Positions 7,384-55,281 are shown, counted from the stretch's first letter. The stretch: 64,000 nucleotides of DNA from Parcubacteria group bacterium (GCA_041660065.1 JBAZXC010000001.1:328535-392534); one strand, 5' to 3'. The notes: generated by a model from the sequence alone, not told the origin. Made by a program: numbers and translations.

Positions 7384-7833
7384 ATGGAGATGATAAAACA
7401 TTTTACTGCCACTACTTATGTTGTGCACGAAAAGAAAGTGCTTTTGCATTTTCACAAGAAACTTCACATGTGGCTGGCAATTGGTGGTCACATCGAGGAC
7501 AATGAACTTCCCGAGGAAGCTGCCTTACGAGAAATAGCTGAAGAAACCGGTTTGATCGCAACCCTTTATGATCCGGATGGACAAATTGGCGTTAGTGATG
7601 TTGAGCAATTAATTCGCCCGATGCATATCTTGCTTGAAGATATTGGCGGGACGCATAAACATATTGACCTTATCTACTATGCGAGAACTGAGTCCGATGT
7701 ATTAAATCCGCAAGACGGAGAGACCGCCAACATAAAATGGTTCACAACTGATGACATACAAAACCTTGATGCGCCGGAAAATGTAAAGACACTTTCTTTA
7801 GCAGCAATTCTTCTTTTATGCCCTACCGATTAA
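7384..7833 (+). CDS. Nudix hydrolase
   Basis: Nudix box GGHIEDNELPEEAALREIAEETGL (GX5EX7REUXEEXGU). Confidence 0.8.
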   Translation: MEMIKHFTATTYVVHEKKVLLHFHKKLHMWLAIGGHIEDNELPEEAALREIAEETGLIATLYDPDGQIGVSDVEQLIRPMHILLEDIGGTHKHIDLIYYARTESDVLNPQDGETANIKWFTTDDIQNLDAPENVKTLSLAAILLLCPTD

Positions 7834-7837
7834 CATT

Positions 7838-7882
7838 ATACAAAAAATAAAAAGGTCTTTCATGATACTAATGAAAAACCTT
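7838..7882 (-). terminator. Hairpin terminator (minus-strand reading gives a T-run after the stem)
   Basis: 12-bp stem AAGGTCTTTCAT / ATGAAAAACCTT between convergent genes. An A-run lies on the plus side. Confidence 0.45.
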
Positions 7883-7911
7883 TGTGAATCGTAAGGATCG
7901 TCACCTAAATG

Positions 7912-8232
7912 TTAAAAATATTTTTGGTAAGAATTCAGTGTTGTGCCGATATCTCGCGCTTCCCGAAGATACGCATAAATGCTGGGAAGTTTGAATCCCG
8001 GAATGTCCATACTTTCTTCCCCCACTTTGATCTGATACAACGTTTTGCTATCGACACACAATGCTGCCAGTTCCGTTAAGAATTCTTCGATCTTTTCCAC
8101 TGCAATGGCACACCCATGACCATTGATGCCATACAAATGCACTTCTGCGCTACCGTTTTTCGTCGCAACCATCATGACCGCCGGTGGAGTATCTCCTTCA
8201 CTTAAAAACTTGATCGCATCTGAAATATCCAT
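7912..8232 (-). CDS. hypothetical protein
   Basis: 106-aa ORF with no recognisable motif. Confidence 0.4.
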   Translation of the reverse strand: MDISDAIKFLSEGDTPPAVMMVATKNGSAEVHLYGINGHGCAIAVEKIEEFLTELAALCVDSKTLYQIKVGEESMDIPGFKLPSIYAYLREARDIGTTLNSYQKYF

Positions 8233-8316
8233 ATTCTTCTCCTTCTTCTGTTGAATGATCTCGCTATTTTTCGACTATTGCAGTCGTCACGAAAATATCG
8301 TCGATTGACATGCATA

Positions 8317-38021: not shown

Positions 38022-38567
38022 TTAAAGTTTTTTGATCTGGAGAAAGTCCAGTTCTACCGGTGTTTCGCGACCAAATACGAGCACAAACACCTTGACCTTT
38101 CCTTTTGCTTCATCGATCTCTTTTACTTCTCCATCAAAGTCTTTGAACGGTCCATCGACGATCTTGATGCTTTCCCCTTTCTTTACATCAATACGATATT
38201 TCGGTTCATTTTGTCCCATCTTCTTTTTGATGGAAGTGATCTCGTTGGCATCTACAGGTGTCGGCGTTGTCCCAAGTCCGATAAATCCTGTTACATTTGG
38301 CGTATTGCGCACCACATACCATGACGCATCCGTCACCACCATCTGCACCAATACATATCCGGGATAAATTTTTTCTTCCACTGTTACACGTTTGCCGTTT
38401 TTGATCTTGATCTTTTTTTCCACAGGGACGATCACATCAAAAATGTAGTCTTGCATGTCCATGGATTCGATACGTTGTCGCAAATTGCGTGCCACATTAT
38501 CCTCGTAACCGGAATATGTATGAAGAACATACCACGCCTTGCCGTGATGTTGCGTTTGTTTTGCCAT
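38022..38567 (-). CDS. nusG: Transcription termination/antitermination protein NusG
   Basis: WYVLHTYSGYE (NGN) and a C-terminal KOW domain. Confidence 0.9.
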   Translation of the reverse strand: MAKQTQHHGKAWYVLHTYSGYEDNVARNLRQRIESMDMQDYIFDVIVPVEKKIKIKNGKRVTVEEKIYPGYVLVQMVVTDASWYVVRNTPNVTGFIGLGTTPTPVDANEITSIKKKMGQNEPKYRIDVKKGESIKIVDGPFKDFDGEVKEIDEAKGKVKVFVLVFGRETPVELDFLQIKKL

Positions 38568-39177: not shown

Positions 39178-40422
39178 CTATACGATCCAATGTGGCAAAA
39201 GATAAATTTGCGTTTTGCTTTTCTTTTCAATTTCAATTGAACTCTCATTGGCAATTACTGCACATCGTGGATTATATTCTCTGATAAACGATGTCAACGA
39301 TTTTGATATTTTGGCACTGGAGAAACCGCTTTTACTTTCCAAGGGAATTTTTTCATTATTAGCGTCGATCACAAAATCCACTTCAGCACCAGTTTTGGTA
39401 CGCCAAAAATTCATTTCCATGTCCTTTTTAATAAATTGGGTGGCAATGAAATTTTCATACAAAAAACCTTTATCCAGCCTATTCTCCAACTTATTAAAGT
39501 CATCAATGACGTAATTGCGCAGTCCCGTATCAAAAAAATACACTTTTGGGTTTTTCACAATTTCCGTTCTCTTATTTACAAAAAATGGTCGAATTGTTTT
39601 GCAAATGAATGTTTTTTCCAAAATGTTTATATATTTCTTAAGGGTTATATAATCATATCCGGAGATGTTTCCCAACTCGTTATAGGCAATCAGTTGACCA
39701 ATTTGTACCGAAAGTGCACGCAATAACCTGGAAAGTCTAAAATCATCAGCCAAACCAAGCAAGTCCTTAACGTCTCGTAAGAAATAGGTATTATAAATAT
39801 TTTTGAGGATCATTTCCTTTTCTTTCATATCTTCAGCCAAGACGACACGCGGGTATCCTCCCCAGATAATAAATTCCTCCAAAATATTATTCATTTGCCC
39901 ATTGATATTTTTTGAGACATCAAGTGTGCCGACTTTATTATTTTTCAAATCAACTATTTTTTTATTTTCCTCATAAATTTTAAAAAGGTTTCCGTCTCTA
40001 AAGCGCAAAAATTCTTCAAAATCCAGTTGATACAAATTGAAAACAAAAACGCGTCCAACCAAATATTTAATGGCATGGATTGTCAAATCGATAGTTGAGG
40101 AGCCGGAAATAATAATCTTGTTTTCCGGAAAAGTATCGAACAAATATTTCAATAGTTTCCCCCCATTTTTGGAATATTGAAACTCATCGATAAAAATATA
40201 TTTATGATGAAAATATTTTTTTGCAAACCCTTTGATATCCTGCTCAAAAAGTTCCAGATCATCTCGGTCTTCAAAATTCAAAAAAATCGAATTTTCCAGT
40301 TGCCCCTGAATCTTTTTGAGAAGAGTTGTCTTTCCGGATTGCCGCGGACCGACAATTGCCAAAATTTCTCTTTTTCCCAAATAGTCTAGAATGAGAGGCT
40401 CAATTTTTCGCTCTATATACAT
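39178..40422 (-). CDS. AAA+ ATPase with C-terminal DUF4143 domain (COG1373 family)
   Basis: Walker A motif GPRQSGKTTLLKKI. Size and layout typical of AAA_14 + DUF4143 proteins. Confidence 0.8.
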   Translation of the reverse strand: MYIERKIEPLILDYLGKREILAIVGPRQSGKTTLLKKIQGQLENSIFLNFEDRDDLELFEQDIKGFAKKYFHHKYIFIDEFQYSKNGGKLLKYLFDTFPENKIIISGSSTIDLTIHAIKYLVGRVFVFNLYQLDFEEFLRFRDGNLFKIYEENKKIVDLKNNKVGTLDVSKNINGQMNNILEEFIIWGGYPRVVLAEDMKEKEMILKNIYNTYFLRDVKDLLGLADDFRLSRLLRALSVQIGQLIAYNELGNISGYDYITLKKYINILEKTFICKTIRPFFVNKRTEIVKNPKVYFFDTGLRNYVIDDFNKLENRLDKGFLYENFIATQFIKKDMEMNFWRTKTGAEVDFVIDANNEKIPLESKSGFSSAKISKSLTSFIREYNPRCAVIANESSIEIEKKSKTQIYLLPHWIV

Positions 40423-40773: not shown

Positions 40774-42423
40774 CTAATTTCCTTTCGCGATCGGCATTTC
40801 GATGATGAATTCCGAGCCTTTGTCGACGCCGTCTGATTTGGCGTAAATGTGCCCACCCTGTGATTCGATCAAGTTCTTGCCCACATACAATCCCAATCCC
40901 GATCCATCGGTATAGACTTTGGTCGAATCCGTCCCGCGTGAAAACTTGGCAAAAAGTGTCTTGAGCGATTCTTCGGAGATGCCCATGCCGGAATCCTTTA
41001 TGGTCACACGCACGACCTCACCATCTTTTTCTGCGATAACATGCACAAATCCCTCCTTGGTATATTTGATCGCATTGTCCATCAAATTTGAGATCACTTC
41101 CCGTAATTTGGATTTGTCCGCTTTGATCGCCGGTAATTGTCCATCCGGTGTCTGGATCTCCAGCTCCAATTTCTTGTCCTGCGCGCGCAAGATGAACATG
41201 TCTTTGAGCTCATTCAAAATATCCTCCACATGCACATCATCTTCCAAACGATATTCCAGTCGCCCCGACTCGATGCGCGTGAGATTGAGCATATCCTCCA
41301 CAAGTTGGATGAGTCGTTCATTGGCGAGAAAGATCTTGTTGAGTGCATCATCCGTCTTGTCCGTATTCTCTCCATACGCCCCCTCGAGAATGAGAGAGAT
41401 ATATCCTTTGATCGCCGTAAGCGGCGTGCGCAATTGATGCGACGCGATCGAGATAAATTCCGATTTTGCATTGTCCAATCGCTTGAGCTCGGCATTGGCA
41501 CGCGCCAGATCCTTGGAGAACTTCATCAACCGATCCTTCTGCATCTCTTCACGTTTCACACTCTTGACCACCCCATAACCGATGATGCACACCAACACAA
41601 ACGCGATACTATTGAGCACTCTGTTAGTAGGATTACCGATAAAAAAGAACTGCGCCCCGATGAGAAAAATGAGCGACCACACCAAAGCCTGCGCCCGCGC
41701 AAGCTTGATATCCATTGCACCGTATTGAACGATCAAATATGCTAACGTAACTATAAAAAACAATATTCCAAACAGTCCATACATCTGAATTTCGTATGTG
41801 ATGTATCCCAACCAAACCAATATACCAGCAACAAAATCAGACACAATATAGATAAACACACTCATGCCCAGAATTGCAATTTTTTTGCGATTATCACCAG
41901 CAGCGCGAAAGTATCGATTAGTCAAAAGAGCAACAACCCACAAAGAAATCACAGCTGTTAATATAAACGCATACGCATTATAATACACACCTTCCGAGGC
42001 TTCACAGTTTACCGCATTGAAATTCACCAAACTCCACTCTGACGACATAAAAACAATCAATGGCAACAACAAAGCGCCCCACACTATTTTACTCCGCACA
42101 TGTGCATCTTTACCATCGACAAAAACATAGATAAAATATAACCCTAAGATTTGGTACATGGAAGAAAATATATTAAACACAGACCACCAAAACATAATCT
42201 GAGAACTGTCCACGCTGAGCCATGTCATCAGATCCGCAACAACCCACAACGCGAACGACATGCTGATCCCGCATAAAATATATCCGAGCAACGATCTACT
42301 TTTAAGTAATACAAAACCACCCATAAACAAGGCAATGATCATCGTGGGAATATGCGTATACCATAACAGATGAGGAACTACTATATGACACGATTCAATA
42401 TTTGTCACAAAATTATAATCCAT
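40774..42423 (-). CDS. Sensor histidine kinase with ~8-TM N-terminal sensor domain
   Basis: HisKA H-box ISIASHQLRTPLTAIKGY and HATPase_c N/G1/G2 boxes. No response regulator gene within the window. Confidence 0.85.
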   Translation of the reverse strand: MDYNFVTNIESCHIVVPHLLWYTHIPTMIIALFMGGFVLLKSRSLLGYILCGISMSFALWVVADLMTWLSVDSSQIMFWWSVFNIFSSMYQILGLYFIYVFVDGKDAHVRSKIVWGALLLPLIVFMSSEWSLVNFNAVNCEASEGVYYNAYAFILTAVISLWVVALLTNRYFRAAGDNRKKIAILGMSVFIYIVSDFVAGILVWLGYITYEIQMYGLFGILFFIVTLAYLIVQYGAMDIKLARAQALVWSLIFLIGAQFFFIGNPTNRVLNSIAFVLVCIIGYGVVKSVKREEMQKDRLMKFSKDLARANAELKRLDNAKSEFISIASHQLRTPLTAIKGYISLILEGAYGENTDKTDDALNKIFLANERLIQLVEDMLNLTRIESGRLEYRLEDDVHVEDILNELKDMFILRAQDKKLELEIQTPDGQLPAIKADKSKLREVISNLMDNAIKYTKEGFVHVIAEKDGEVVRVTIKDSGMGISEESLKTLFAKFSRGTDSTKVYTDGSGLGLYVGKNLIESQGGHIYAKSDGVDKGSEFIIEMPIAKGN

Positions 42424-42439
42424 ATTTTTTTATTTGTAT

Positions 42440-43237
42440 TCATTTTATCACAAGTTCATAATCAAAGCGATCTTTCACATATTTTTTCACGATTTCTTTT
42501 TGTGATACCGCACCACACCACCAATATAGATCATCCAACACTTCTGACGGTGTTAATTGACAAATAAGCGGCTTTACACCAAAAATTTCCTCTACTTTTG
42601 TAAAACTCGGCAACAAAATTTCTCTCACAAAATTCCCCTCATCACCTTCTACAACATAATTTTCAAAAAGAATGCCGTGACATAAAAAGAGGGATAAAAA
42701 GTACAAATAATAATATTCTGTCAAATTTCGTGTCCGATAAAACCAATCAGAAAAATCGTACACATTTCCGACTAAATCCGGCATCACCATATCCGTCAGG
42801 TCGTGATGAAAATCTAATAACGATTGTCCCCACACTGTTTTTACATCACACAACCGCTTACCTTCTTCGGTATTGTAATTAATGATCTTTGTGTAAGGCA
42901 CATTTGCAAAACTCTCCAGTCCAAATTCATCGCAAAAATACAATTTGCCCAGTAGATACTTAGGAATGCTCTTTGCAACAAATTTGTCCTTTGTGAATTC
43001 CAAGCATAATGGCTCTAATTTGATTTCTTTTGCCAACTGCAAAAAACGTTCAGTATCATGTCCCGGAGTAATCACATATTGATTCGTGATCGCGCGCGGA
43101 CCATTTTTAAATAAAAATGTAATATCATCACCAAGAAATTCTTCTACTTTGGCACGCAAAACAACATCATTCCATCTTTTGTGAATTTCCATCTTTGCAT
43201 CCTCCAGTGATGTATAAATGCTATAATCTTCTTTCAT
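42440..43237 (-). CDS. Tandem-paralog family protein A (unrecognised ~255-aa family)
   Basis: Shares (I/V)(E/H)(R/K)RW…, T(V/L/M)WG(E/Q)…DFHH, HG(V/I)L(F/C)(E/D)N(F/Y), FG(V/M)(S/K)PL(I/V) and YWWC motifs with the next three genes. Start trimmed to MKEDYS (43237) by alignment. Confidence 0.6.
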   Translation of the reverse strand: MKEDYSIYTSLEDAKMEIHKRWNDVVLRAKVEEFLGDDITFLFKNGPRAITNQYVITPGHDTERFLQLAKEIKLEPLCLEFTKDKFVAKSIPKYLLGKLYFCDEFGLESFANVPYTKIINYNTEEGKRLCDVKTVWGQSLLDFHHDLTDMVMPDLVGNVYDFSDWFYRTRNLTEYYYLYFLSLFLCHGILFENYVVEGDEGNFVREILLPSFTKVEEIFGVKPLICQLTPSEVLDDLYWWCGAVSQKEIVKKYVKDRFDYELVIK

Positions 43238-43257
43238 TTTTTTATCATACAAAAAAT

Positions 43258-44019
43258 CTATACATGTACATCTTCCATGACATCCTTTGGATAACACCAC
43301 CAATACACATCCATCACCTCTTCCTCCGGTTGTGCGGGAATAATAAGTGGGGATACACCAAATGTATCAACGATTTCATCAAAGGCCGGATTAAATATCT
43401 CTCGTGTAAATTCTTCCTCACCCGCCACAACGTCCGTAAAATTTTCAAAGAGTACGCCATGAGCCACAAATAACGCCAAAAATTTTTTGTAATACTGATC
43501 AATGGATGTTTTCATATGATTTTCAGCGAACCATTCAAAATCATCAAAAATTTCCACCTGCGGAACATATTTCTGTGCAATTCGATGATGAAAATCAACC
43601 AACTTTTCTCCCCACAACGTCACAATCTCATCAAATCTCTTTCCTTGCGCCTGCGCAAGATCAACGATCAATTTATTCTGACTGATAACATCATGATTTT
43701 TATCATACCCTTTAAAAAAACGTGGTTTTACAAGAAGCATTTTATCTTCATTGTTCGTTACAAAAATATCATGCACACCCTCTAATCCCAGTGGCGCAAG
43801 ATGTAATTCCTGTGCCATCTTCACAAAATGACGCAATTCAAAATCCGGTGAAATAATATTCCGTGACAATACAGCGCGCGGCTCATGCTGAAACGGCTCT
43901 GGGATTTCTCCGCTCAAATATTCACGCACACGCTCTTTGAGAGCATCATCTTTCCATCTCCTCTGAATTTCTACCTTTGCATCTTCTATTGTGGTGTAAA
44001 AACTCCTTTTTTGATCCAT
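43258..44019 (-). CDS. Tandem-paralog family protein B
   Basis: See 42440. MDQKRSFYTTIEDAKVEIQRRW…TLWGEKLVDFHH…VAHGVLFENF…YWWC. Confidence 0.6.
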   Translation of the reverse strand: MDQKRSFYTTIEDAKVEIQRRWKDDALKERVREYLSGEIPEPFQHEPRAVLSRNIISPDFELRHFVKMAQELHLAPLGLEGVHDIFVTNNEDKMLLVKPRFFKGYDKNHDVISQNKLIVDLAQAQGKRFDEIVTLWGEKLVDFHHRIAQKYVPQVEIFDDFEWFAENHMKTSIDQYYKKFLALFVAHGVLFENFTDVVAGEEEFTREIFNPAFDEIVDTFGVSPLIIPAQPEEEVMDVYWWCYPKDVMEDVHV

Positions 44020-44027
44020 ATAATTTT

Positions 44028-44801
44028 TTATTTTTTAATACCTTTCATTTTCTCATCCAATATCTCCTGCATCTGCGCATCAAAATACCACTGATCTGTT
44101 TCCATTTCTTCTTGCGTAAAAAGTGGCACAATTAATGGATAGACCCCAATCTTTTCTTTGACATATTCTATCGCAGGATAACTCACTTCCTCCAAAAAAC
44201 CTTTTGCCGCATCTGGATCATCGTCGTACTCCAAGACTTCGCACGACACGCCAAAGACGGTCACAATCGCATAGAACGCTTTGTAGTATTCCTTGGCTCG
44301 CTCTCCATTGTGCACAAGCCAATCGGACATATCTTTCATTTCAGGCTTTTCTTGATGCATTGTGAAAAATGCATTGTGAAAAAATTCAATCAAATTTTCA
44401 TTCCACATCGTTTGTAATCCTTTTAATTTTTTTCCATCACTGGCAAAATAGTCTATGATATGTGTGGAATGAATGATTGGTTCATTATTTTTGTTCATTT
44501 TTTCGCACACATCAATACGACCCCAACGCAATTTATCAGGGTTTACTGTTGTAAATTTATCATCATAATACTCAAATACAAACGGCTTGAGTTGCAACTG
44601 TTCCGCAATATGCATAAACCGTCGCGTCTCTGAATCTGGGATGCAAATCTGACGAAACAACACTGCACGAGGCTCCTGTAAAAAAACTTCTGGCACATCA
44701 CCATGCAAAAAATCTACGACACGTTTCTTTAGATCTTCATCCTGCCAGCGCCTCTGAATTTCTTCTCGCGCCTCTTCAATTGACATATTATATTTTCCCA
44801 T
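44028..44801 (-). CDS. Tandem-paralog family protein C
   Basis: See 42440. …EIQRRWQDEDLKKRV…CEKMNKNNEPIIHST…QWYFDAQMQEIL. Confidence 0.6.
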   Translation of the reverse strand: MGKYNMSIEEAREEIQRRWQDEDLKKRVVDFLHGDVPEVFLQEPRAVLFRQICIPDSETRRFMHIAEQLQLKPFVFEYYDDKFTTVNPDKLRWGRIDVCEKMNKNNEPIIHSTHIIDYFASDGKKLKGLQTMWNENLIEFFHNAFFTMHQEKPEMKDMSDWLVHNGERAKEYYKAFYAIVTVFGVSCEVLEYDDDPDAAKGFLEEVSYPAIEYVKEKIGVYPLIVPLFTQEEMETDQWYFDAQMQEILDEKMKGIKK

Positions 44802-44816
44802 ATTGCTTTCTTAATA

Positions 44817-45596
44817 TTACACCAATCTATTAGATGTTTTTTTCATTTTCTCATTCAATATCTCCTGCATCTGCGCATCAAAATACCATTGGTCACATTG
44901 TTCAATTTCTTCATCTGAAAAAATTTGAACTACCAGCGGTTTCATGCCAAATTCTTGTGTTACATGATCAAATGCGGGTCGTACCACCTCATAAAAAAAA
45001 TTATTCTCGTCACCACCGTCTGCACCAAAGTTATCACACAATACGCCATGTGCAATACACAACGCAAAAAATTGTTTATAGTATTCATTTGCCTTTTTAC
45101 CATGACACACAAGCCATGCAGACAAATCATAGATTTCTGGTCGTGCCATACCCATCGCATCAAATGATGCGTGAAAAAAATCCACAATAGGTTCACCCCA
45201 TGTTGTAGCGATATCCGCCAGTGACTTATTATCATTTGCAATAAAATCAATGATGCGTGTCGAACGAATGATCGGCTCGTTGTTTTTGTTCATTTTTTCA
45301 CACACATCCAATCTACCATACTGCAATTTATCGGCATTACGCGTACAAAACTTATCTGCAAGATATTCCAAATTGATCGGCAATAAACTCATTTTTTGAG
45401 AACATTCCAAAAATCGTTTTGTCTCTGACCCGGGGATGCAAATATTGCGAAAAAGAATGCTCCGCGGTTCACGCAAAAACACCTCGGGGATATCACCTTG
45501 CAGATATTCGCGCACTTTTGTTTTTACCTCCTCATTTTGCCAACGTTTTTGAATTTCCACTGATGCGGTTTCTGGTGTTACATAAAAATCGGACAT
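44817..45596 (-). CDS. Tandem-paralog family protein D
   Basis: See 42440. ~60% identical to protein C over most of its length. Confidence 0.6.
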   Translation of the reverse strand: MSDFYVTPETASVEIQKRWQNEEVKTKVREYLQGDIPEVFLREPRSILFRNICIPGSETKRFLECSQKMSLLPINLEYLADKFCTRNADKLQYGRLDVCEKMNKNNEPIIRSTRIIDFIANDNKSLADIATTWGEPIVDFFHASFDAMGMARPEIYDLSAWLVCHGKKANEYYKQFFALCIAHGVLCDNFGADGGDENNFFYEVVRPAFDHVTQEFGMKPLVVQIFSDEEIEQCDQWYFDAQMQEILNEKMKKTSNRLV

Positions 45597-45700
45597 ATCA
45601 TGATGTGATTATAATATATTTAATTATAACACAATTTAAAAGTTTATAGACAAAAAATTAAAGAGGTGCATGTTTATAGAAACACACACCTCAATAGTTC

Positions 45701-46708
45701 TTAGAAAAGATTGGTAACATACTTGATGAAATCACCAGCCTCTTCCAGTCCCTCACTGTACGCCCAGATCCAAAAAACGGCTTGAACGGCAGTGGCCGGG
45801 AGAAGGAACATCCACCGTCTTACGACAGTATTCAATTCCTTATGGTAAAAATACATCACCTGATCCGGACCGTCCCACAAAATACCGACAGTATTGATCC
45901 AAATCATCCACAAATATGCAATCCATGGAGATCGGGTTTTGACGTGATCAAACACCCGACGAAATGCTTTGCCAAAGGATAAATCCTTATCAAAAGCCTC
46001 CGCCATCTTGACCGCACCGGCTGCCTTGATATTGTTACCAAGCCAACCGAAAAGAAAGTACCAGACCAGAGAGAATTGCGCTTTTACACACAACTCCACC
46101 ATCGCCAGGGAAAACACGGACCAACTCCAATCATAGATCGAGTCAACCAGTCCCCATTTTTCCATCGTGGCAACCTTCTTCACAATCTCATCTTTACCAT
46201 CTTCTTCTTCGATAGCGTAGAACTCAATCGCTGTGATCTTGATCACATTGACGGAGTACACGACAAATCGTGAAAACCGATGTGACTTTTCTGTCGCCGA
46301 TGCAACATAATACGCATACAGACGCCCGAAAATCTTTTTTGACAACTCACTGAAAATCACCTTCTTGACCATTGCGATGATCTGTGCAAAAAACACAAAC
46401 GCCACAATAATCACCGCGACCTTCGGTAAAAATTCCCACAAGTACTTTGACAGAAAGTCAAATACCCGAGGAGCATAGAACACAATCTGATCACCAAAGA
46501 CTACAGCAACGGTAGTGGCGATCACGATCATACTGATTTTCAGAAACACTTTGTTGCCACTGATGATCCAAATCAGACACAACAGTGCCATAGCAACCAT
46601 CGCTAACACCAGAGAAAATTCCCCAAGGTTAGCAACCAACCATAGAGTTACCGCATGAAGTTCATGCAATAACCCGTTCTCCAAAAGCCTGTTTACGAGT
46701 CCCTGCAT
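45701..46708 (-). CDS. hypothetical polytopic membrane protein
   Basis: 335 aa with multiple TM helices. First gene of the co-directional block membrane protein → paralogs D, C, B, A → histidine kinase. Confidence 0.55.
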   Translation of the reverse strand: MQGLVNRLLENGLLHELHAVTLWLVANLGEFSLVLAMVAMALLCLIWIISGNKVFLKISMIVIATTVAVVFGDQIVFYAPRVFDFLSKYLWEFLPKVAVIIVAFVFFAQIIAMVKKVIFSELSKKIFGRLYAYYVASATEKSHRFSRFVVYSVNVIKITAIEFYAIEEEDGKDEIVKKVATMEKWGLVDSIYDWSWSVFSLAMVELCVKAQFSLVWYFLFGWLGNNIKAAGAVKMAEAFDKDLSFGKAFRRVFDHVKTRSPWIAYLWMIWINTVGILWDGPDQVMYFYHKELNTVVRRWMFLLPATAVQAVFWIWAYSEGLEEAGDFIKYVTNLF

Positions 46709-46807
46709 GACATCACCTCTTTGGTTTTGGTTAAAGTTGTAAACGAACTACGAAATCCCATTATACACCAAAAAAGCCCCTTTGTCAATCCCCCACACAC
46801 CAAAAAC

Positions 46808-47010: not shown

Positions 47011-47517
47011 ATGCACCCACTAGATAAACTATGCCGTCCTGTAGTCACTGCGATCATCAGGAAGAACATCGGCAACATACCTCACATCCTTATGCAAACA
47101 CGGTGGAAACCAAAAGAAGATCCCCTCTACAGTGGCACGCTGGAATTGCCGGCTGGACATTTGGATGCGTTCGAGGATATACATGAAGCTCTAAAACGTG
47201 AGGTTTTCGAGGAAACCGGTTTGCATGTGCGTGTCATTTCACCGGATACGCGAACAAAAACTTTCTCACCACGTGAGGACGGTGCATTTGGTTTTCAACC
47301 GTTTTGTGCTCATCAACAGATCAAAAATGGCTTACCCTGGATCGGATTTGCCTTTTTATGCGAAGTTGAAGATGGTGAATTTGTCGCGCAAGAAAGTGAA
47401 ACACGCGACCAAAAATGGCTGCCGGAATCTGACATCGAAATGATGGTCAAAAATGCTCCTGAAAAAATATTTACATTTCACCTTGCGGCACTCGCATACT
47501 ATTTTGAGAAAAAATAA
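47011..47517 (+). CDS. Nudix hydrolase
   Basis: Nudix box GHLDAFEDIHEALKREVFEETGL. Confidence 0.8.
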   Translation: MHPLDKLCRPVVTAIIRKNIGNIPHILMQTRWKPKEDPLYSGTLELPAGHLDAFEDIHEALKREVFEETGLHVRVISPDTRTKTFSPREDGAFGFQPFCAHQQIKNGLPWIGFAFLCEVEDGEFVAQESETRDQKWLPESDIEMMVKNAPEKIFTFHLAALAYYFEKK

Positions 47518-47636: not shown

Positions 47637-48104
47637 ATGCAAAAAATTAAATGTAAAAATAATTTCGACAAATTAGTCGAATTGCCGATCAACAAATTTG
47701 TTTTTAGGCCGAGTGTATATGGAATAATATTGGATAAGGGTGAAGCGGTTTTCATGAAAAATAAAAGTAATGGTAAACTCTGGTTCCCAGGCGGAGGCAT
47801 TGAAATCGGGGAAACTCTGGAGGTGGCATTAAAAAGAGAAATTATGGAAGAAACCGGTCTCAAAGTCAACATGGGTGAGATGACCCTATTCAAAGAAAAT
47901 TTTTTCTACTACGAGCCGTTGGATGAGGCTTATCATGCTTTCCTATTTTTTTTCATATGTAAAGCTAAAAATAAAAACCTTTCTGACTCCACCGACTTGG
48001 AATCAAAAAATCCAAAGTGGATGAAAATCAAAGAAGTCAAGAAAAATCAAATTAGCGATCTAGCCGATGATTTGTATAAATTATTACAGAAGATCGAGGA
48101 TTAG
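47637..48104 (+). CDS. Nudix hydrolase
   Basis: Nudix box GGGIEIGETLEVALKREIMEETGL. Confidence 0.75.
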   Translation: MQKIKCKNNFDKLVELPINKFVFRPSVYGIILDKGEAVFMKNKSNGKLWFPGGGIEIGETLEVALKREIMEETGLKVNMGEMTLFKENFFYYEPLDEAYHAFLFFFICKAKNKNLSDSTDLESKNPKWMKIKEVKKNQISDLADDLYKLLQKIED

Positions 48105-48560: not shown

Positions 48561-49616
48561 TTATCCAAAATAATTTTCCACCGCAAATTCAAACTGCTTC
48601 AAAAATAATTCCTTGAAATATGAAATATTATTTTGCTCATAGAATAGAAGAATCGCTTTTTTGTATTCTATTTCGTCCATGTTACGGTAAGAAAGCGGGC
48701 AAGAATCAAAGGACTGTAGAATTGCATTGCCGGATAACCGACTGGTTCGTTTATTTCCATCGACAAATGGCTGAATATAGGCAATAAGAAGCATCAGAAT
48801 AACAGCTTTCTCAAAAACATCTCCTGTTTTGTTCACAAGCTGACAGGATTTTTCTAGAGCCTCTCTGATCTGAAATTCATTGTCAAGCGGCTTGTATTTT
48901 GTCCCAGTTATTCCGACCATGGTTTTTCGCAAATTTTTGGTCACATGCAAACTATCCACTATCAGTGAGTGGATGTTTTCTATTTTGGAAACCGATACTA
49001 ACTGGAAATTTTTTCTGTTGTTCCCGATATAGTCCAGAGCCTTCTTGTGATTAAGGATCATGATCATCTCTTCCTTGGTGTGTCCCAATGCTTCTTGTTG
49101 ATTCTTAATCAGTTGTTCCGTTTCCAGAAGACTGTAGGTATTCCCTTCAATTTTTGACGACTTCCAACTGAAATCGATATTGAGTCTCTCAATTTCTTTC
49201 CTGAGAGCATCAGGAAAGATGTTTTTTATTTTGTCCCTGTAAATTTCATTCAGCTCCAGTAGCTTTTTTTTCTCAGTATCGTTAAAAATGTTTTTTAGAT
49301 GATCAAAGATATCAAAGTTAAACTTCTCCCCGATATCCCGCTGATCGGCATCAGTAGCAAAATACTTTTCGATATCGATTTTCTTAAGTATAGAGTATTG
49401 AGGAGATAATTGATAAATAACTGCCCGCCCGGCTCCCTGCCTCCCAATAAGATTGAGTTCAAGCATTTTCTCCAAATCTCTGGAAATAGTAATTCTGGTC
49501 ACTTCTCCAATGCTTTCTTGAACATGTGCAAGTATCTGCCCAATAGAGGCAGTTTTATTGATCTCAATAAAGACTAAAATGGCATCTTGCCTTTTGTTTA
49601 ACTTGTTGTCTACCAT
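48561..49616 (-). CDS. Fic/DOC family protein with N-terminal wHTH; catalytic-motif His replaced by Gln
   Basis: Motif region reads IQPFVDGNKRTSR (CAG codon confirmed on the minus strand near 48745-48790). The canonical motif is HPFx(D/E)GN(G/K)R. Confidence 0.75.
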   Translation of the reverse strand: MVDNKLNKRQDAILVFIEINKTASIGQILAHVQESIGEVTRITISRDLEKMLELNLIGRQGAGRAVIYQLSPQYSILKKIDIEKYFATDADQRDIGEKFNFDIFDHLKNIFNDTEKKKLLELNEIYRDKIKNIFPDALRKEIERLNIDFSWKSSKIEGNTYSLLETEQLIKNQQEALGHTKEEMIMILNHKKALDYIGNNRKNFQLVSVSKIENIHSLIVDSLHVTKNLRKTMVGITGTKYKPLDNEFQIREALEKSCQLVNKTGDVFEKAVILMLLIAYIQPFVDGNKRTSRLSGNAILQSFDSCPLSYRNMDEIEYKKAILLFYEQNNISYFKELFLKQFEFAVENYFG

Positions 49617-49800: not shown

Positions 49801-50661
49801 ATGAAGACTACATCAAAGAATTTTCGTTTGCTGTTTGCATTTTTATTTGCAATGACAATCACCTTCACCTCAAGCGCCACTATGGCCACAGAGGATGAGG
49901 ATGATGTTGCAGATGATGCTGTAGTATCGTCCCAAGATGTCGGCGCTGTGCCTACATCAACAGAAGATGCCGAGGAAGAAACAGCACCTCAACCAACTGA
50001 TGCGCAAGCATCTGATGAGCAGGAGGAAGCGACCGGTCTTTCGGTAAGCGGTGACGTGACAGTTGCCACGATGAACGTGGACGCACTGTCAGGCGAGAAG
50101 TTATCGTCTCACATCACCATCGCGCCGACCGTGATCGTGAGCTACGACGATTTTTATGCAAGTGCCACGCTGACCACGGAGGACTTCGACAAGAGGTTTT
50201 CCGACAACACAGCAAATTCCGTTCAGATTTCTGTCGGCATGGAAAAAGAGTTTGCCGGCATCACGTTTGACGGTGGTATGGGCTTCTTAGATACTCAGAA
50301 TTCCGCAGGAGACTTCTGGTGTATCTACCTCAACGCCGAAATGAAGGAATTAGCAATAATTCCTTACATCAAGGTAGAAGTAGACATCCCTACCAACAAA
50401 GAGATCACCGAAGGCGGCTTCCTATACAGGTTTGGTGGGAAGTACGCCTGGAATGAGATCCTGTTCGATCTGTCAGTTGCAGGTCATGATGGCGCTTATG
50501 GCTACAAGCCCCAAGCGCTCAGCTCAGGACTCCTCTCCGTTTCTAGAGAGTTCACTCTCTGGGGACAAAAGATCATCCCGTCAGTAAACATTCAAAAAAC
50601 ATTTGACACCGATGGGATCGCGGAAGATCTCGTGTGGTTAAACCTGCAAGTCAAGTTCTAA
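49801..50661 (+). CDS. Secreted acidic protein with beta-rich C-terminal domain ending in …VKF (OMP-like terminal Phe)
   Basis: Signal peptide, a D/E-rich low-complexity segment, then alternating hydrophobic strands. C-terminal Phe. Confidence 0.5.
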   Translation: MKTTSKNFRLLFAFLFAMTITFTSSATMATEDEDDVADDAVVSSQDVGAVPTSTEDAEEETAPQPTDAQASDEQEEATGLSVSGDVTVATMNVDALSGEKLSSHITIAPTVIVSYDDFYASATLTTEDFDKRFSDNTANSVQISVGMEKEFAGITFDGGMGFLDTQNSAGDFWCIYLNAEMKELAIIPYIKVEVDIPTNKEITEGGFLYRFGGKYAWNEILFDLSVAGHDGAYGYKPQALSSGLLSVSREFTLWGQKIIPSVNIQKTFDTDGIAEDLVWLNLQVKF

Positions 50662-50797: not shown

Positions 50798-50880
50798 ATT
50801 TACCAGTCCGTAGCTTTAGCGAAGGATGGCTCTACCAATCTACTAATCTACCAGTCTAAATGTCTACCAATCTAACAAAC
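50798..50880. repeat. ATTTACCAGTCCGTAGCTTTAGCGAAGGATGGCT repeat (copy 3) followed by TCTACCAATCTA-type short tandem repeats
   Basis: Identical core to 18886-18919 and 40704-40738. Followed by CTACCAATCTACTAATCTACCAGTCTAAATGTCTACCAATCTA. Confidence 0.6.
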
Positions 50881-52616
50881 TACACTCCCGTATGTTGCAA
50901 TTCGTGGAGTTTTTTGTATACACCACCGTGACGGATGAGCTCATTGTGGTCACCGCGTTCAATGATGCGCCCGTTGTCTACCACGAGGATCATATCCGCT
51001 TTACGCACCGTGCTCAGTCGGTGCGCGATCACGATCGTCGTGCGTCCGCGCATCACTTCTTCCATTGCATCTTGAATGTATTTTTCTGACTCACTATCGA
51101 GTGCACTTGTTGCTTCATCGAGGATAAGGATCCGCGGATCGCGCAAGATCGCACGCGCGATCGACAAACGCTGGCGTTGACCGGCAGACAGTTTGGCACC
51201 GCGATCTCCGATCAATGTGTCGTAATTTTTGGGCAGTTTGTGCACGAACTCATGGCAATGCGCCTTGCGTGCGACACGTAAAATTTCATCCGGTCGCGCG
51301 CTCTTGCGTGAATATGTGATATTGCTTTTGATCGAGTCGTGAAACAGTCCATTCTCCTGCGACACGATCGCGATCTGGCGGCGCAAGTCTTCCAATCTGA
51401 TGTTGCGTACATCGATCCCATCAATGCGCACTGCACCCTCTGTCGGTATGAGAAAACGCGGGATCAGATCCACGAGCGTCGTCTTGCCTTGTCCGCTCTT
51501 CCCCACGATCGCCACCATTTGTCCCGGCTGGATCGTGAAATTCACGTCTTTCAATATCTCTCGCTCTCCATAGGAGAAATGTACATGGTCAAACTCGATC
51601 TTGCCATCGCAACGATCCATGTGCTCGGCGTGGAGATCGAGATATTTTTCCTCCGGTACGCGGTAGATCTCTTCGGCGCGCGCGATCGTGACTAGGCCTT
51701 CTTGCAATTCTTTGTAATTACTTCCAAGCGTTTGGATCGATGCGGATGCCATGTTGATATATGCCAGCAACATAATAAACTGCCCGATCGTGATCATATC
51801 CCGCGTGATAAAATACAACCCTGTAAGAAAAAGCAAAAGGAATCCTGTAGAAAAAACCACATGCTGCCAAAACTGCAATTTCATGAGAAATCCTGTGTAA
51901 CGATCGAATTGACGATAGATCTTCTCATATTTTTCACAGTTTTGCAGGTATTCCGCTTCCTCCGTGCCATGTGCTTTGATCACAAACACGTTTGGCGTAC
52001 GTTCAAATACGTCGCCGTAGATATCTTCCAGTTTTTCACTGATATCCTCGTTATACGTAATGATCGGCTTTGTCTTGATGATCGTGATAATGATAAACAC
52101 GCCCACAAACACAAGATAAATTAACGCCAACTCCCACCGAATCCACATGATCACACAAAAGGCCAAAAATGATGTGAGAATATGTGGCGCACTCTGTAAT
52201 ACGCCATCATTGATCACACGATCCATATATGCGTCAGCACGATCAAATCTCTCGATATATTCCCCCGTCTTATTTTCCCTGTGAAATGACAATGGGAGAC
52301 GGATCAAGTGGCGCACATATCGCGTGAACATATCAATGCCAATTTTATAACCGATCCGCACACCCCACCGCACACGCATACGCATCGCCCATTCACTCAC
52401 GAGACTGAGGATATACCATCCACCGATAAGGACGAGTACGATCAGAGAAAAACTCTTCTCTCCGACCACGATGTCTATCGACTTTCCATAAAGAAGTGGC
52501 AGGATCAATTGGATGCCATTTTCCACAAGCACAAAAAGCAAGGCCACTACAAACATCTTTTTGTGCGGTTGAATATACTTTTTGATCGTTGAAAAATGTG
52601 TTTTTACATAACTCAT
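50880..52616 (-). CDS. ABC transporter permease/ATP-binding protein (MsbA-like exporter)
   Basis: Six-TM domain, Walker A GKSGQGKTT, ABC signature LSAGQRQR, Walker B ILILDEATSALD. Confidence 0.9.
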   Translation of the reverse strand: MSYVKTHFSTIKKYIQPHKKMFVVALLFVLVENGIQLILPLLYGKSIDIVVGEKSFSLIVLVLIGGWYILSLVSEWAMRMRVRWGVRIGYKIGIDMFTRYVRHLIRLPLSFHRENKTGEYIERFDRADAYMDRVINDGVLQSAPHILTSFLAFCVIMWIRWELALIYLVFVGVFIIITIIKTKPIITYNEDISEKLEDIYGDVFERTPNVFVIKAHGTEEAEYLQNCEKYEKIYRQFDRYTGFLMKLQFWQHVVFSTGFLLLFLTGLYFITRDMITIGQFIMLLAYINMASASIQTLGSNYKELQEGLVTIARAEEIYRVPEEKYLDLHAEHMDRCDGKIEFDHVHFSYGEREILKDVNFTIQPGQMVAIVGKSGQGKTTLVDLIPRFLIPTEGAVRIDGIDVRNIRLEDLRRQIAIVSQENGLFHDSIKSNITYSRKSARPDEILRVARKAHCHEFVHKLPKNYDTLIGDRGAKLSAGQRQRLSIARAILRDPRILILDEATSALDSESEKYIQDAMEEVMRGRTTIVIAHRLSTVRKADMILVVDNGRIIERGDHNELIRHGGVYKKLHELQHTGV

Positions 52617-52642
52617 AAGAAAATACTTTCTTGAGTATTGTT

Positions 52643-53410
52643 TTATTTTTTTATTCCAAAGAGAAATGAATCTCGTTCACCATAGCTCGGGATCATAATA
52701 TCAGAACGTGTGACATCAGTAAAATATTCTTCAAAAATACCTTGTAACAATAGGGCTGCATCAACGTACTTATCACGATCAACATCAGTGTCTCCAGCCT
52801 GAAATGCCACCCATCCCCCGGTTTTTACAACTTTATGCGTCAATGCAATCACCTTTCTGTAAAATTCTGTAAATTCAGCCTTTTCTTCTTCAGTAATCGG
52901 CTCTCCTGTAAAATCACAAACGAGTCCGTCATAAAGTTCCTTTCCCTCTTTTACGGCATTTTCCATGTATACCAATCCATCCCCTATATGCAAATGTAAT
53001 CGCGGATCATCAAAAACCTTTTGTTCCAAAAATTCTTTGGCACAATAAATGATCTCGGGATCCAATTCTGCCAGATCAATTTGCAACTGCGGATTCTGTG
53101 TCAACGCCTCCTGCGCAACATATCCATCACCGCCTCCCAAAATCGCCAATGATCGATCTTCCGGTCGCAATAGCGTAAGAATCTCCTTATCATACAAATG
53201 ATGATCACTTTCTGCTGTCTGCATGCACTTATTGATTATCAAACAACGTCCAAACTCTTTTGTATCAATTACCATAATATCCTGAAATTCAGACTTTTTA
53301 TCATAAAAAATCTCTTTGACTCCAATTGTCATATTCTCTCCGGTTTCAAAAATCGGCAAGGTGATTGATTGGATATTCTCATTCTCTCCTTTCGTCTTCA
53401 TTTTTTCCAT
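52643..53410 (-). CDS. speE: Spermidine synthase-like aminopropyltransferase (stand-alone)
   Basis: ILGGGDGYVAQEAL…DLAELDPE…GDG pattern of the SpeE fold. Confidence 0.7.
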   Translation of the reverse strand: MEKMKTKGENENIQSITLPIFETGENMTIGVKEIFYDKKSEFQDIMVIDTKEFGRCLIINKCMQTAESDHHLYDKEILTLLRPEDRSLAILGGGDGYVAQEALTQNPQLQIDLAELDPEIIYCAKEFLEQKVFDDPRLHLHIGDGLVYMENAVKEGKELYDGLVCDFTGEPITEEEKAEFTEFYRKVIALTHKVVKTGGWVAFQAGDTDVDRDKYVDAALLLQGIFEEYFTDVTRSDIMIPSYGERDSFLFGIKK

Positions 53411-53448
53411 ATTTTTTATAATAATATTTATGCTATATATCTAATACA

Positions 53449-54576
53449 TTATTTCTTTGCAAAAAGAAATGCGTGATTTGTGCCAAAACTCGGGACAAAA
53501 ACATCGCTTTGCTCGATATCTTTCCATGACTTTTCCTGTAATATTTCCTTTACGATTGAGACTGCGTCGACAGTTTCCACTGAAACTGTTGATGCACCGG
53601 CCTGAATCGCGATCCATCCCCCATCTGTCAATTTCTCATACGCCAGATCGCACGCTTCATCATAAAACGCAGAAAACTCCTCCCCATCCTCGCGACCGAT
53701 CGGCTTGTCAGTAAGATCAAAGATGATACCGTCATAATTTTTGTCCGTTGTTTTGAGATAATGCAACGCATCCGCAATATGCAACTGCGCTTGTTCATTG
53801 CAAAAAACATCTTGTCCGAGATGCCGCTCGCACGCTCGCACCACTTCCACATCCAGATCCACCACATCCACCCGCACTTTTGATTGTGGGTTTTCTGCAA
53901 GCACGCGCCCTGTAATATATCCATCACCACCACCAAGAATCAAGATATTTTTATCTTCCGGCCGTAATTTTTTGATCATCTCTCGATCATACAGATAATG
54001 ATCTTTTTCCGCCGCTTGCATCATATTGTCAATGATCAGACATTTGCCAAATTCCTTTGTATCCACGATCATGATCTTTTGCAAAGCTGTTTCGACCTCG
54101 ACAATATCTTGCACCACATCCACATACATCAATTCTCCCGTACTGAAAACCGGTAAAGCCATGCGATATTTCTCAAATGAACACCCTTGTCTCTCCACGA
54201 TCGCACCACCCTTTCTTGCAACGCGATACCCGCGCTGGATCTTTTTTATCTCGACACATTCATACGTGATATGTTCTTTGAGATATTGCACTGCTCGTTC
54301 TGTTTCTGCTTCTATCGCGCATGTAAACACATCGCACACCACATAATTGTTTTCTGGCCATGTATGGATGGAGATATGCGATGACGACAACAACAAATAC
54401 CCCGTGATACCCTGCGGTTCAAATTCAAAGAAAAAATCATGCAACGATTCCATCGTTGTCCCCTCAATTGACGCATGAAGTACCTGCTTCCAAAAATTCA
54501 CATCATTGATCTGCTCGATATCACACCCAAAAAACTCAATAAGAAAATGAAACCCGTCCGGTTTACTGTTAAACAT
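53449..54576 (-). CDS. Fusion of S-adenosylmethionine decarboxylase (SpeH-type proenzyme) with spermidine synthase domain
   Basis: The N-terminal ~120 aa have the SSSHISIHTWPE processing/active-site motif of class 1B AdoMetDC. The C-terminal ILGGGDGYITGRVL…VDLDVEVV… is the SpeE fold. Confidence 0.75.
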   Translation of the reverse strand: MFNSKPDGFHFLIEFFGCDIEQINDVNFWKQVLHASIEGTTMESLHDFFFEFEPQGITGYLLLSSSHISIHTWPENNYVVCDVFTCAIEAETERAVQYLKEHITYECVEIKKIQRGYRVARKGGAIVERQGCSFEKYRMALPVFSTGELMYVDVVQDIVEVETALQKIMIVDTKEFGKCLIIDNMMQAAEKDHYLYDREMIKKLRPEDKNILILGGGDGYITGRVLAENPQSKVRVDVVDLDVEVVRACERHLGQDVFCNEQAQLHIADALHYLKTTDKNYDGIIFDLTDKPIGREDGEEFSAFYDEACDLAYEKLTDGGWIAIQAGASTVSVETVDAVSIVKEILQEKSWKDIEQSDVFVPSFGTNHAFLFAKK

Positions 54577-54639
54577 ATTGCGTCATCATCACATATTACA
54601 CATAAAATCTCTGCACTATACCATCAAATTAAAAATATG

Positions 54640-55281
54640 TCAATCATTCGCTTCAGGAGAAACTACCATGTCCTTATCAGTCATATCTGCGCTTTCATTA
54701 TCTTCTCCTGCTTCAACACCCTCATCCGCCACTACTCCATCTTCTGCTTCAATCATTCCTCCTTCAACTACCCCTGCCTCATCAACACTTCCTTCTCCTT
54801 CCTCCAATTCTTCCTCCTCACCTTCTTCATCTTCCAGAAGAGCTTCCGGATGTTCGTTGATGTATGTCTCAGGATCACTACATGTCACTTCGTCAACTTT
54901 TGCTGTCTCCTCAGTACACGTTACCTCACCGCAATCTTCCTCCCCATCATCACATGCGAACGGATCGCAATCCGCATCATCCACATTACATTCTGGCACA
55001 TTTTTTGCCAATCGTTCCAGATGTGTATAATACCACACATCCTCTTCTGGATTGCCCGTACATTTTTCTTCCTCATCGACAGCATCCGGATCACATTCCC
55101 ATACATAACAGATCTCTACAGTCGGATCACAATCATCATGATAGACAAGTATATATCCCCGATCAATCACAAAATGCCAGTAGGAATATCCTATCCCGCC
55201 AAAGATCACCAAAAACATCATAACCACAAAACCTTTATCTTTAAGTTCCATACTATTTTTTGTTTTATCCACAAAACTCAT
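54640..55281 (-). CDS. Membrane-anchored, extremely acidic Cys-containing protein
   Basis: N-terminal TM helix, then a D/E-rich region with repeated CDPD / C-x-x-C elements. Opposite-strand ORFs 54475-55323 are low-complexity shadows. Confidence 0.45.
   Translation of the reverse strand: MSFVDKTKNSMELKDKGFVVMMFLVIFGGIGYSYWHFVIDRGYILVYHDDCDPTVEICYVWECDPDAVDEEEKCTGNPEEDVWYYTHLERLAKNVPECNVDDADCDPFACDDGEEDCGEVTCTEETAKVDEVTCSDPETYINEHPEALLEDEEGEEEELEEGEGSVDEAGVVEGGMIEAEDGVVADEGVEAGEDNESADMTDKDMVVSPEAND

Follow-up and report, generated by a model that had tools for sequence, protein, structure and literature searches.

Positions 40,774-46,708 of a 64,000-nt stretch of DNA from Parcubacteria group bacterium (GCA_041660065.1 JBAZXC010000001.1:328535-392534; the whole stretch is called the window below) contain four tandem genes of an unrecognized protein family, which lie between a gene for a polytopic membrane protein and one for a sensor histidine kinase. 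Across genomes, the family forms a near-obligate operonic pair with one clade of polytopic kinases that carry no other sensor domain. It also co-occurs frequently with a membrane protein, X, and a membrane-anchored protein, Y. Structure modeling places the family among the HUP-class Rossmannoid domains, a group that includes the catalytic cores of the class I aminoacyl-tRNA synthetases (aaRS) and of related nucleotidyltransferases. The assignment is at superclass level only, because no structural match to the model is significant. Going by that model, what is new is a HUP-fold family as a kinase-linked partner, and an experimentally tractable one. The four paralogs, A to D, and the kinase are listed here with their supporting open reading frame (ORF), alignment and hidden Markov model (HMM) evidence; residue numbers throughout are those of paralog C.

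44817-45596, minus strand: paralog A, 259 aa, A/B-type, with F at the conserved H144 (ORF, alignment, family HMM 2e-96)
44028-44801, minus strand: paralog B, 257 aa, with the most degenerate putative pocket, H144F, N193V and E201A (ORF, alignment, HMM)
43258-44019, minus strand: paralog C, 253 aa, canonical, with all near-invariant residues kept; the copy chosen for the structure model
42440-43237, minus strand: paralog D, 265 aa, adjoining the kinase, of the D-type subfamily with R53Q, E61D and N90S (ORF, alignment)
40774-42423, minus strand: sensor histidine kinase, 549 aa, eight transmembrane segments followed by HisKA and HATPase_c (Pfam, NCBIfam, hydropathy)

The initial annotation described these as four co-directional, homologous genes, and ORFs, alignment and HMM all agree. 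The end-to-end alignment of the four has 43 invariant columns, and the family HMM matches each copy at E values from 1e-93 to 1e-104, a homology far beyond chance. The public locus tags of A and D are WC819_01895 and WC819_01880. For D, the mechanically called ORF reaches back to a TTG at 43303, while the ATG at 43237 gives the 265-aa protein of the public annotation (P0002). The motif blocks reported as common to the four are present with small deviations, D having EIHKRW and both A and B having DFFH rather than DFHH. A and B are indeed the closest pair, at 50.8% identity, but C and D, which had been named as the other close pair, are no closer to each other (36.3%) than A is to C (36.7%). 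The remaining values are 33.9% for B-C, 31.7% for A-D and 27.8% for B-D. All four proteins lack a transmembrane segment and are acidic, with isoelectric points (pI) of 4.9-5.2 against a family median of 6.0. The gaps from A through D are 15, 8 and 20 nt, and 16 nt separate D from the kinase gene. With spacers of 8-20 nt, the four paralogs and the kinase gene most likely form a single operon.

When 1.84 billion cluster representatives (50% identity) were searched exhaustively with the HMM, 868 proteins passed a threshold of E ≤1e-3, and 378 still passed one of E ≤1e-30; word-indexed searches returned 113 and 713 proteins. Family members are soluble, acidic proteins of ~255 aa, and the named ones are all called "hypothetical protein" with the exception of a SET-domain fusion (P0357). 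That the family is unrecognized, as first proposed, is borne out by the sequence searches. The four paralogs had no match in Pfam, NCBIfam, PADLOC or PHROGs. When all 63 members of a deep alignment were scanned singly against Pfam at E ≤1, no recurrent family emerged, and the profile of those 63 sequences had 0 matches at E ≤10 among PDB sequences. Viral contigs contained no family relatives. In the literature we found no prior description of the family or of an X-Y-family-kinase module, and, in its accessible portion, the survey of class-I-aaRS-like proteins by Aravind et al. makes no mention of the family. Family and module both appear to be undescribed.

For gene context, loci were found by a genome scan with the alignment of the four window paralogs, and ORFs were called in 78 species-representative loci and searched with profiles and probes. 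These loci are overwhelmingly from Patescibacteria, the candidate phyla radiation (CPR), and include Paceibacteria, Saccharibacteria, Moranbacteria, Nomurabacteria, Kaiserbacteria, Peribacteria and others. Across ~80 species, a locus has essentially one copy of the family gene. Some high-GC (guanine plus cytosine) loci are labeled Gammaproteobacteria, Deltaproteobacteria or Verrucomicrobiota (L048, L070, L082, L089, L028). Because the GC content of the family gene equals that of its contig in these loci, we conclude that the family exists natively outside the CPR.

The array lies immediately 5' of a same-strand histidine kinase with a sensor region of about eight transmembrane segments, just as the initial annotation stated; hydropathy predicts eight segments between residues 28 and 287. 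Pfam finds HisKA at 9.1e-18 and HATPase_c at 3.8e-23, with a weak, sub-threshold match to HisKA_7TM, and the translation shows the H-box SHQLRTPL together with the N, G1 and G2 boxes. The protein has both the phospho-acceptor and the catalytic domain of a two-component kinase. A Pfam scan of the kinase found no other sensor domain and none that is cytoplasmic. A receiver-domain HMM found no response regulator in the 64-kb window, in line with the earlier reading, and the window offers no cognate regulator for this kinase.

A functional module with the kinase had been proposed from the window, and the neighborhood survey supports it. Of the 70 loci with enough flanking sequence, 63 have a kinase with a homologous multi-transmembrane domain as the next gene downstream, on the same strand. 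The gap between the two genes has a median of 14 nt and is ≤30 nt in 42 of 67 pairs; in L004, the called kinase gene even overlaps the family gene (8794 versus 8804). This linkage holds in widely diverged Patescibacteria that have none of their other flanking genes in common.

X and Y are the usual further members of the module. X is a protein of ~180 aa with three long hydrophobic helices in its AlphaFold2 (AF2) model, several transmembrane segments by hydropathy, and the motifs FDYxLYP, FYDWxKKDWLGxE, DPFxTTxYxRxG and GLSKRDWKIF. Y, of ~115-220 aa, has an N-terminal transmembrane anchor, a domain with ~10 cysteines and often a poly-acidic tail, and is presumably extracytoplasmic. Among the 63 loci scored for these neighbors, Y lies within 3 kb of the family gene in 50, X in 36, and one or the other in 56. 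The commonest orders are X-Y-family-kinase (17 loci, three of them continuing into a response regulator), family-kinase (nine), Y-family-kinase (seven) and X-family-Y-kinase (seven). An adjacent response regulator is present in only six of the 63 and is mostly a single-domain receiver of ~125 aa. Longer forms of X (P0383, P0409, P0426) reach ~350 aa with an extra N-terminal multi-transmembrane region; some sources label them "MFS permease". A 173-aa X homolog, P0466, is named "predicted membrane-bound spermidine synthase" by JGI; we treat this as a lead only, which hints that X may resemble the membrane domain of such synthases.

X and the family gene also occur together without a downstream kinase in four loci (L036, L070, L082, L089), three of them non-CPR. 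Because stand-alone pairs occur in high-GC, non-CPR metagenome-assembled genomes (MAGs), X together with the family constitutes the core of wider distribution; the kinase is found beside it only in CPR-type loci. As two-gene units, the pairs span 9333-10786 in L070, 9347-10789 in L089 and 2982-4424 in L082, all in MAGs labeled Gammaproteobacteria with high native GC. The units in L070 and L089 are flanked by opposite-strand ORFs.

The AF2 model of paralog C, built with the 63-sequence alignment, has a predicted local distance difference test score (pLDDT) of 94.6 and a predicted TM-score (pTM) of 0.91. It shows a five-stranded Rossmannoid alpha/beta core, the arrangement expected of the HUP class. 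Foldseek against the PDB returned nothing at E ≤1e-3, and the best TM-score was ~0.34. The weak matches are HUP proteins, namely TyrRS, GMP synthetase, QueC, LarE and TtuA, and the best structural neighbors of the model are aaRS and BshC rather than universal stress proteins (USPs). The check suggested at the outset, by HMM and structure search, gave no HMM family and, from structure, the HUP superclass only; the protein is without a close solved structural relative.

Conservation was computed over 446 non-redundant members, at ~35% identity. K93 is kept in 100% of them, P224 in 99%, R21 and Y177 in 98%, and T134 in 97%. E80, N90 and H144 follow at 96%, D84 and E201 at 95%, R53 and E61 at 92%, D159 at 91%, H145 at 90% and E192 at 89%. 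In the model, R53, P58 and E61 lie in the loop that joins strand 1 (48-53) to helix 1 (60-71); E80 and D159 end the strands 75-80 and 156-159, D84 comes a little beyond strand 75-80, and E192 after strand 188-191. HUP domains are described in an earlier survey as all binding substrate at the edge of the sheet formed by the strand C-termini (PMC2922099). Several of the ~14 near-invariant polar positions lie at this same edge, where they would form a conserved polar pocket with novel residues. Many of the conserved residues of this putative pocket are acidic or aromatic.

By the motif counts, the family has lost the HIGH and KMSKS ATP motifs. H.GH occurs in 2 of the 446 members and T.GH in 15, at no conserved position, and the strand-1 loop instead reads R53-x-I-x-[ST]-P58-x-x-E61. 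A KMSKS-type loop occurs in none of the 446; the consensus after the P224-L-I-V strand is PLxPxxxExxxYW. The PP-loop SGGxDS (0/446), the P-loop (1/446) and the USP glycine motif G-2x-G-9x-G(S/T) (0/446) gave the same picture. Pfam, NCBIfam and PDB sequences yielded no sequence-profile match to any class I aaRS or HIGH nucleotidyltransferase family. The family is therefore likened to its HUP relatives, class I LysRS (1irx), TyrRS, BshC (4wbd) and the NaMN, PPAT and ATP-sulfurylase nucleotidyltransferases, by predicted fold. It differs from them in having no sequence-level relationship and none of the HIGH/TxGH, KMSKS, PP-loop or USP motifs. Unlike them, it is also a bare ~255-aa protein to which no anticodon-binding, coiled-coil or other domain is appended.

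Tandem amplification with divergence had been read from the array. The divergence stands, but a recent amplification is rejected, because every copy has an ortholog in another genome that is closer to it than any partner in the window. The closest are P0004 for A (77% identity), P0003 for B (92%), the L019 protein for C (52%) and P0008 for D (75%); D also has a counterpart in the second family copy of L027. C is canonical at all 16 diagnostic sites, A adds a conservative E192D to its H144F, and B and D depart at the three sites listed for each. The D combination is found in only ~10-16 of the 446 members. The order of A-type, canonical and D-type copies before the kinase recurs in relatives. 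L093 has the membrane protein, an A-type, a canonical and a D-type copy and then the kinase; L027 has a canonical and a D-type copy and then the kinase, so that the D-type copy adjoins the kinase in both, as in the window. From these comparisons, we regard the four copies as old, ordered paralogs. A check on close relatives had also been suggested. L019, the closest fetched relative by kinase similarity, does have a family gene before its kinase, but one canonical copy rather than four, and the same holds for L095.

Two observations on these loci stand apart from the above. The GC content of the window dips to 0.37-0.38 at 42-46 kb, compared with ~0.43 in well-conserved regions, and in many CPR loci (L002, L019, L027, L033, L087 and others) the GC content of the family gene is 10-25 points below that of the whole locus, for example 0.315 against 0.563 in L087 and 0.348 against 0.543 in L033. 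In L093, a 252-aa ORF lies directly 3' of the kinase on the same strand (7505-8263); it has no Pfam match and is not a family member by HMM.

As to function, we tentatively favor a cytoplasmic, amine-directed enzyme of the ligase or transferase type, whose activity is coupled to the partner kinase in a conserved membrane signaling module. The family protein would be the cytoplasmic, small-molecule-handling subunit of this module. Its putative pocket would bind, and most likely convert in a ligase- or transferase-type reaction, an aliphatic amine such as a polyamine or a lysine-type side chain. Coupling might be achieved in either of two ways: the enzyme makes a ligand that is read by the membrane domain of the kinase, or it modifies or gates the kinase complex. 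In the window, C would then be the canonical active form, and A, B and D may differ in specificity or act as non-catalytic regulators, with all copies feeding into the one kinase. We propose an amine-directed enzyme because the density and type of the conserved residues favor catalysis over mere binding, because the fused or juxtaposed partners (GNAT, SET, aminopropyl transfer) handle aliphatic primary amines, and because the putative pocket is acidic and aromatic.

The fusions and neighbors in question are as follows. N-terminal GNAT fusions are clear in P0023, P0117 and P0168 and weak in P0127 and P0073; C-terminal SET fusions are found in P0166, P0180, P0204, P0213 and P0357. The last of these keeps the usual slot directly upstream of the kinase (L094), and the gene of the GNAT fusion P0073 has an S-adenosylmethionine (AdoMet) decarboxylase gene on one side and X on the other, and no kinase (L011). 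Genes for AdoMet_dc or AdoMet_dc-spermidine-synthase proteins are adjacent or within a few kb in L004, L011, L015, L019, L027, L054 and L095. SET domains are protein-lysine methyltransferases. A class-I-aaRS-like protein next to a GNAT enzyme is familiar from mycothiol synthesis, in which the ligase MshC is followed by the acetyltransferase MshD. MshC, however, is a recognizable CysRS paralog that retains the class I aaRS ATP-binding motifs, whereas the family lacks them and has no thiol-biosynthesis genes in its neighborhood.

Several points weigh against an amine-directed enzyme. Every functional step is inferred from sequence and from a structure model. The canonical HUP nucleotide motifs are all absent, so the chemistry cannot be read from relatives. 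Three of the four window paralogs are substituted at near-invariant sites, and catalysis is thus not required of every copy. A conserved ligand pocket fits a non-catalytic sensor equally, and the role of SET fits a protein target or regulation at least as well as small-molecule chemistry. Moreover, the polyamine link, although real, is a minority feature, present in four of the 78 species loci in the forward direction. By our own estimate, chance alone would give ~1 of 78 for a single-copy gene in a ~1-Mb genome with 6.5 kb searched on each side. A reverse search, started from the AdoMet decarboxylase-spermidine synthase protein, found the module near only the closest of 80 metagenome loci containing AdoMet decarboxylase, and this 1/80 result downgraded polyamine linkage from a defining feature to a minority association. 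Since the association is rare in both directions, we use it only as a hint about the type of substrate.

Extending the amine-directed enzyme to a circuit with a self-produced signal, of the quorum-sensing or host-contact type and spread across the CPR, is speculative, and we consider it unlikely. The HUP-fold enzyme would make or tailor an amine-derived molecule of polyamine or aminoacyl type, X would handle it, Y would capture it and the kinase with its eight transmembrane segments would read it, with the four paralogs serving as four signal or input variants. The layout is like that of CqsA/CqsS, LqsA/LqsS and LuxM/LuxN, in which a gene for a cytoplasmic enzyme lies beside one for a kinase whose sensor is purely transmembrane; the analogy extends to layout only. 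The family has no homology to CqsA, a pyridoxal phosphate enzyme, or to LuxM. X and Y are without counterparts in any of these systems, and, in contrast to the quorum-sensing pairs, few module loci have an adjacent response regulator.

A non-catalytic sensor or scaffold is the main alternative to the amine-directed enzyme, possible if somewhat doubtful. Here the HUP-type pocket would bind a cytoplasmic metabolite or nucleotide, and docking of the protein on the DHp/CA region of the kinase (and on X) would set kinase or phosphatase activity. GNAT enzymes often carry fused ligand-binding domains that regulate them, which would accommodate the GNAT fusions. The kinase is without a cytoplasmic sensor domain, the family and kinase genes are tightly spaced, and several paralogs with altered pockets on one kinase would fit diversified sensor inputs. 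HUP-class USP domains are documented modulators of kinases: KdpD is bound at its Usp domain both by UspC (PMC2714519) and by c-di-AMP (PMC4686210). The family would be like UspC in being a cytoplasmic HUP-class partner of a membrane histidine kinase, and the tight gene pairing suggests a physical partnership comparable to that of UspC and KdpD. Unlike USPs, it has no Pfam Usp match and none of their glycine motif, and is twice the size. What speaks for catalysis instead is that the ~14 polar residues conserved at ~90-100% in the 446 members are a mix of basic, acidic, Thr, His and Tyr positions more typical of an active site. In addition, the kinase-free pairs of X and the family, which make up ~10% of loci and include those outside the CPR, imply that the family protein has a role independent of the kinase.

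Those same four kinase-free loci would suit a housekeeping or envelope enzyme that works with X and is merely co-transcribed with, or regulated by, the kinase, taking no part in signaling. The CPR genomes are compact, with long mixed operons, and in other loci many of the neighbors are aaRS and cell-envelope genes. We nevertheless think such an enzyme quite unlikely, as it would leave unexplained the fixed 5' slot before the same kinase family in 90% of loci despite differing flanks, a slot that is kept even by the family-SET fusion.

An enzyme like the cyclodipeptide synthases (CDPSs) is improbable. It would have a derived class-I-aaRS core that uses aminoacyl-tRNAs rather than ATP and would make a peptide-type signal for X to export and the kinase to sense. 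The CDPSs (AlbC family) are described as small, stand-alone, derived class-I-aaRS-like HUP domains in which HIGH is replaced by a signature of their own, and their products as able to act as signals (PMC2922099; see also PMC3105412); the family is like them in being small and stand-alone, in its predicted fold and in having given up HIGH. Synthase genes beside polytopic kinase receptors are also the rule in quorum sensing of the CqsA/CqsS type (PMC3285556). However, the family does not have the GxSxxN loop after strand 1. GxSxxN occurs anywhere in 13 of the 446 members, which is chance level, and the strand-1 loop carries R..P..E instead. The acidic pI (~5 in the window paralogs, median 6.0 in the family) is unfavorable to tRNA binding, and there is no profile-level similarity to any PDB chain. 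A mobile defense, toxin-immunity or phage-derived cassette amplified in tandem is very improbable and largely refuted: a PDC-S01-type AAA_14/DUF4143 ATPase and a Fic gene are nearby and in many loci the family genes have a higher AT content than their flanks, but no paralog has a PADLOC or PHROG match, viral contigs hold no relative, the gene is essentially single-copy in a fixed chromosomal operon with the kinase across ~80 species, and the paralogs are ancient with orthologs elsewhere.

The CPR make up a large share of bacterial diversity and are epibionts with tiny genomes. To our knowledge, almost nothing is known of what they sense or how. The four-part module of X, Y, the HUP-like protein and the polytopic kinase is kept across most sampled CPR lineages, and three of its parts are unannotated. 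It offers a concrete, testable entry into CPR signaling, with defined proteins, a confident structural model, mutable residues and candidate ligands, namely polyamines or lysine-type amines. If the model holds, the family also adds a motif-less branch to the class-I-aaRS/HUP superfamily, in which earlier such branches, the CDPSs and the MshC- and BshC-type enzymes, showed unexpected chemistry.

Upstream of the array in the window, the following features were found.

45701-46708, minus strand: polytopic membrane protein, 335 aa, at least five transmembrane segments, in the position held by X elsewhere
45663-45692, minus strand: terminator-like hairpin, a 13-bp stem and then a T-run, directly after the membrane-protein stop codon
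45611-45640, minus strand: promoter-like site with 9/12 consensus matches, just upstream of paralog A; a consensus match only
46760-46788, minus strand: perfect sigma-70 consensus (TTGACA, 17 nt, TATAAT), upstream of the gene for the 335-aa membrane protein

The initial annotation placed a polytopic membrane protein of 335 aa before the array, which is accurate as far as it goes. However, the 104 nt between this gene and paralog A hold the terminator-like hairpin and the promoter-like site, so the gene is probably a separate neighboring transcription unit, and it is not the usual partner, a place taken in most genomes by X and Y. The site at 45611-45640 is a possible start of a transcription unit covering the four paralogs and the kinase. 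The membrane protein is kept upstream of the family genes in the relatives L019 and L093 and has no PADLOC family. The idea that it is a divergent X is not supported: hhalign against X and against the long X forms gave <1% probability, and the X HMM gave E >0.2. As no similarity to X could be detected, we take it to be another partner, specific to its lineage.

The Y of the window lies in a minus-strand string (50880-55281) that sits 9 kb upstream of the family array and is made up of four genes.

54640-55281, minus strand: module protein Y, window copy, 213 aa, with a transmembrane anchor, a 10-Cys domain and an acidic tail (66 D+E against 10 K+R)
53449-54576, minus strand: AdoMet decarboxylase-spermidine synthase fusion, directly downstream of Y (Pfam)
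52643-53410, minus strand: second spermidine/spermine synthase (Pfam)
50880-52616, minus strand: ABC exporter (ABC_membrane and ABC_tran), last gene of the string (Pfam)

This Y is matched by the Y HMM at 9.6e-41 and also by phmmer. Two aminopropyltransferases together with an exporter suggest that a longer or unusual polyamine may be made and secreted.

Between this string and a Fic gene, a protein of 286 aa is encoded at 49801-50661 on the plus strand; it combines a signal-like segment at the N-terminus with an acidic region of low complexity and has no Pfam match. At Rfam gathering thresholds, no RNA family was found in the 64-kb window, despite the presence of genes with a housekeeping look, a NusG-like one (38022-38567) among them. 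Just downstream of the kinase, an AAA_14 and DUF4143 ATPase gene (39178-40422, minus strand) matches the PADLOC candidate PDC-S01 at 1.7e-89 and has its own promoter-like site at 40490-40462; a gene with the same two domains lies upstream of the cluster in L093 (1048-2196). The Fic-domain gene (48561-49616, minus strand) is near the module in the window and again in the distant Peribacteraceae locus L094 (13034-13969), which carries the family-SET fusion; this could be coincidence. NUDIX genes also recur beside the module. Two divergently oriented copies lie upstream in the window (47011-47517 and 47637-48104, plus strand), and others are found in L018 (12542-12952), L073 (13032-13529), L007 (10002-10601) and L004 (12854-13303). 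In L018 and L073, the NUDIX gene is directly 3' of the kinase on the same strand.

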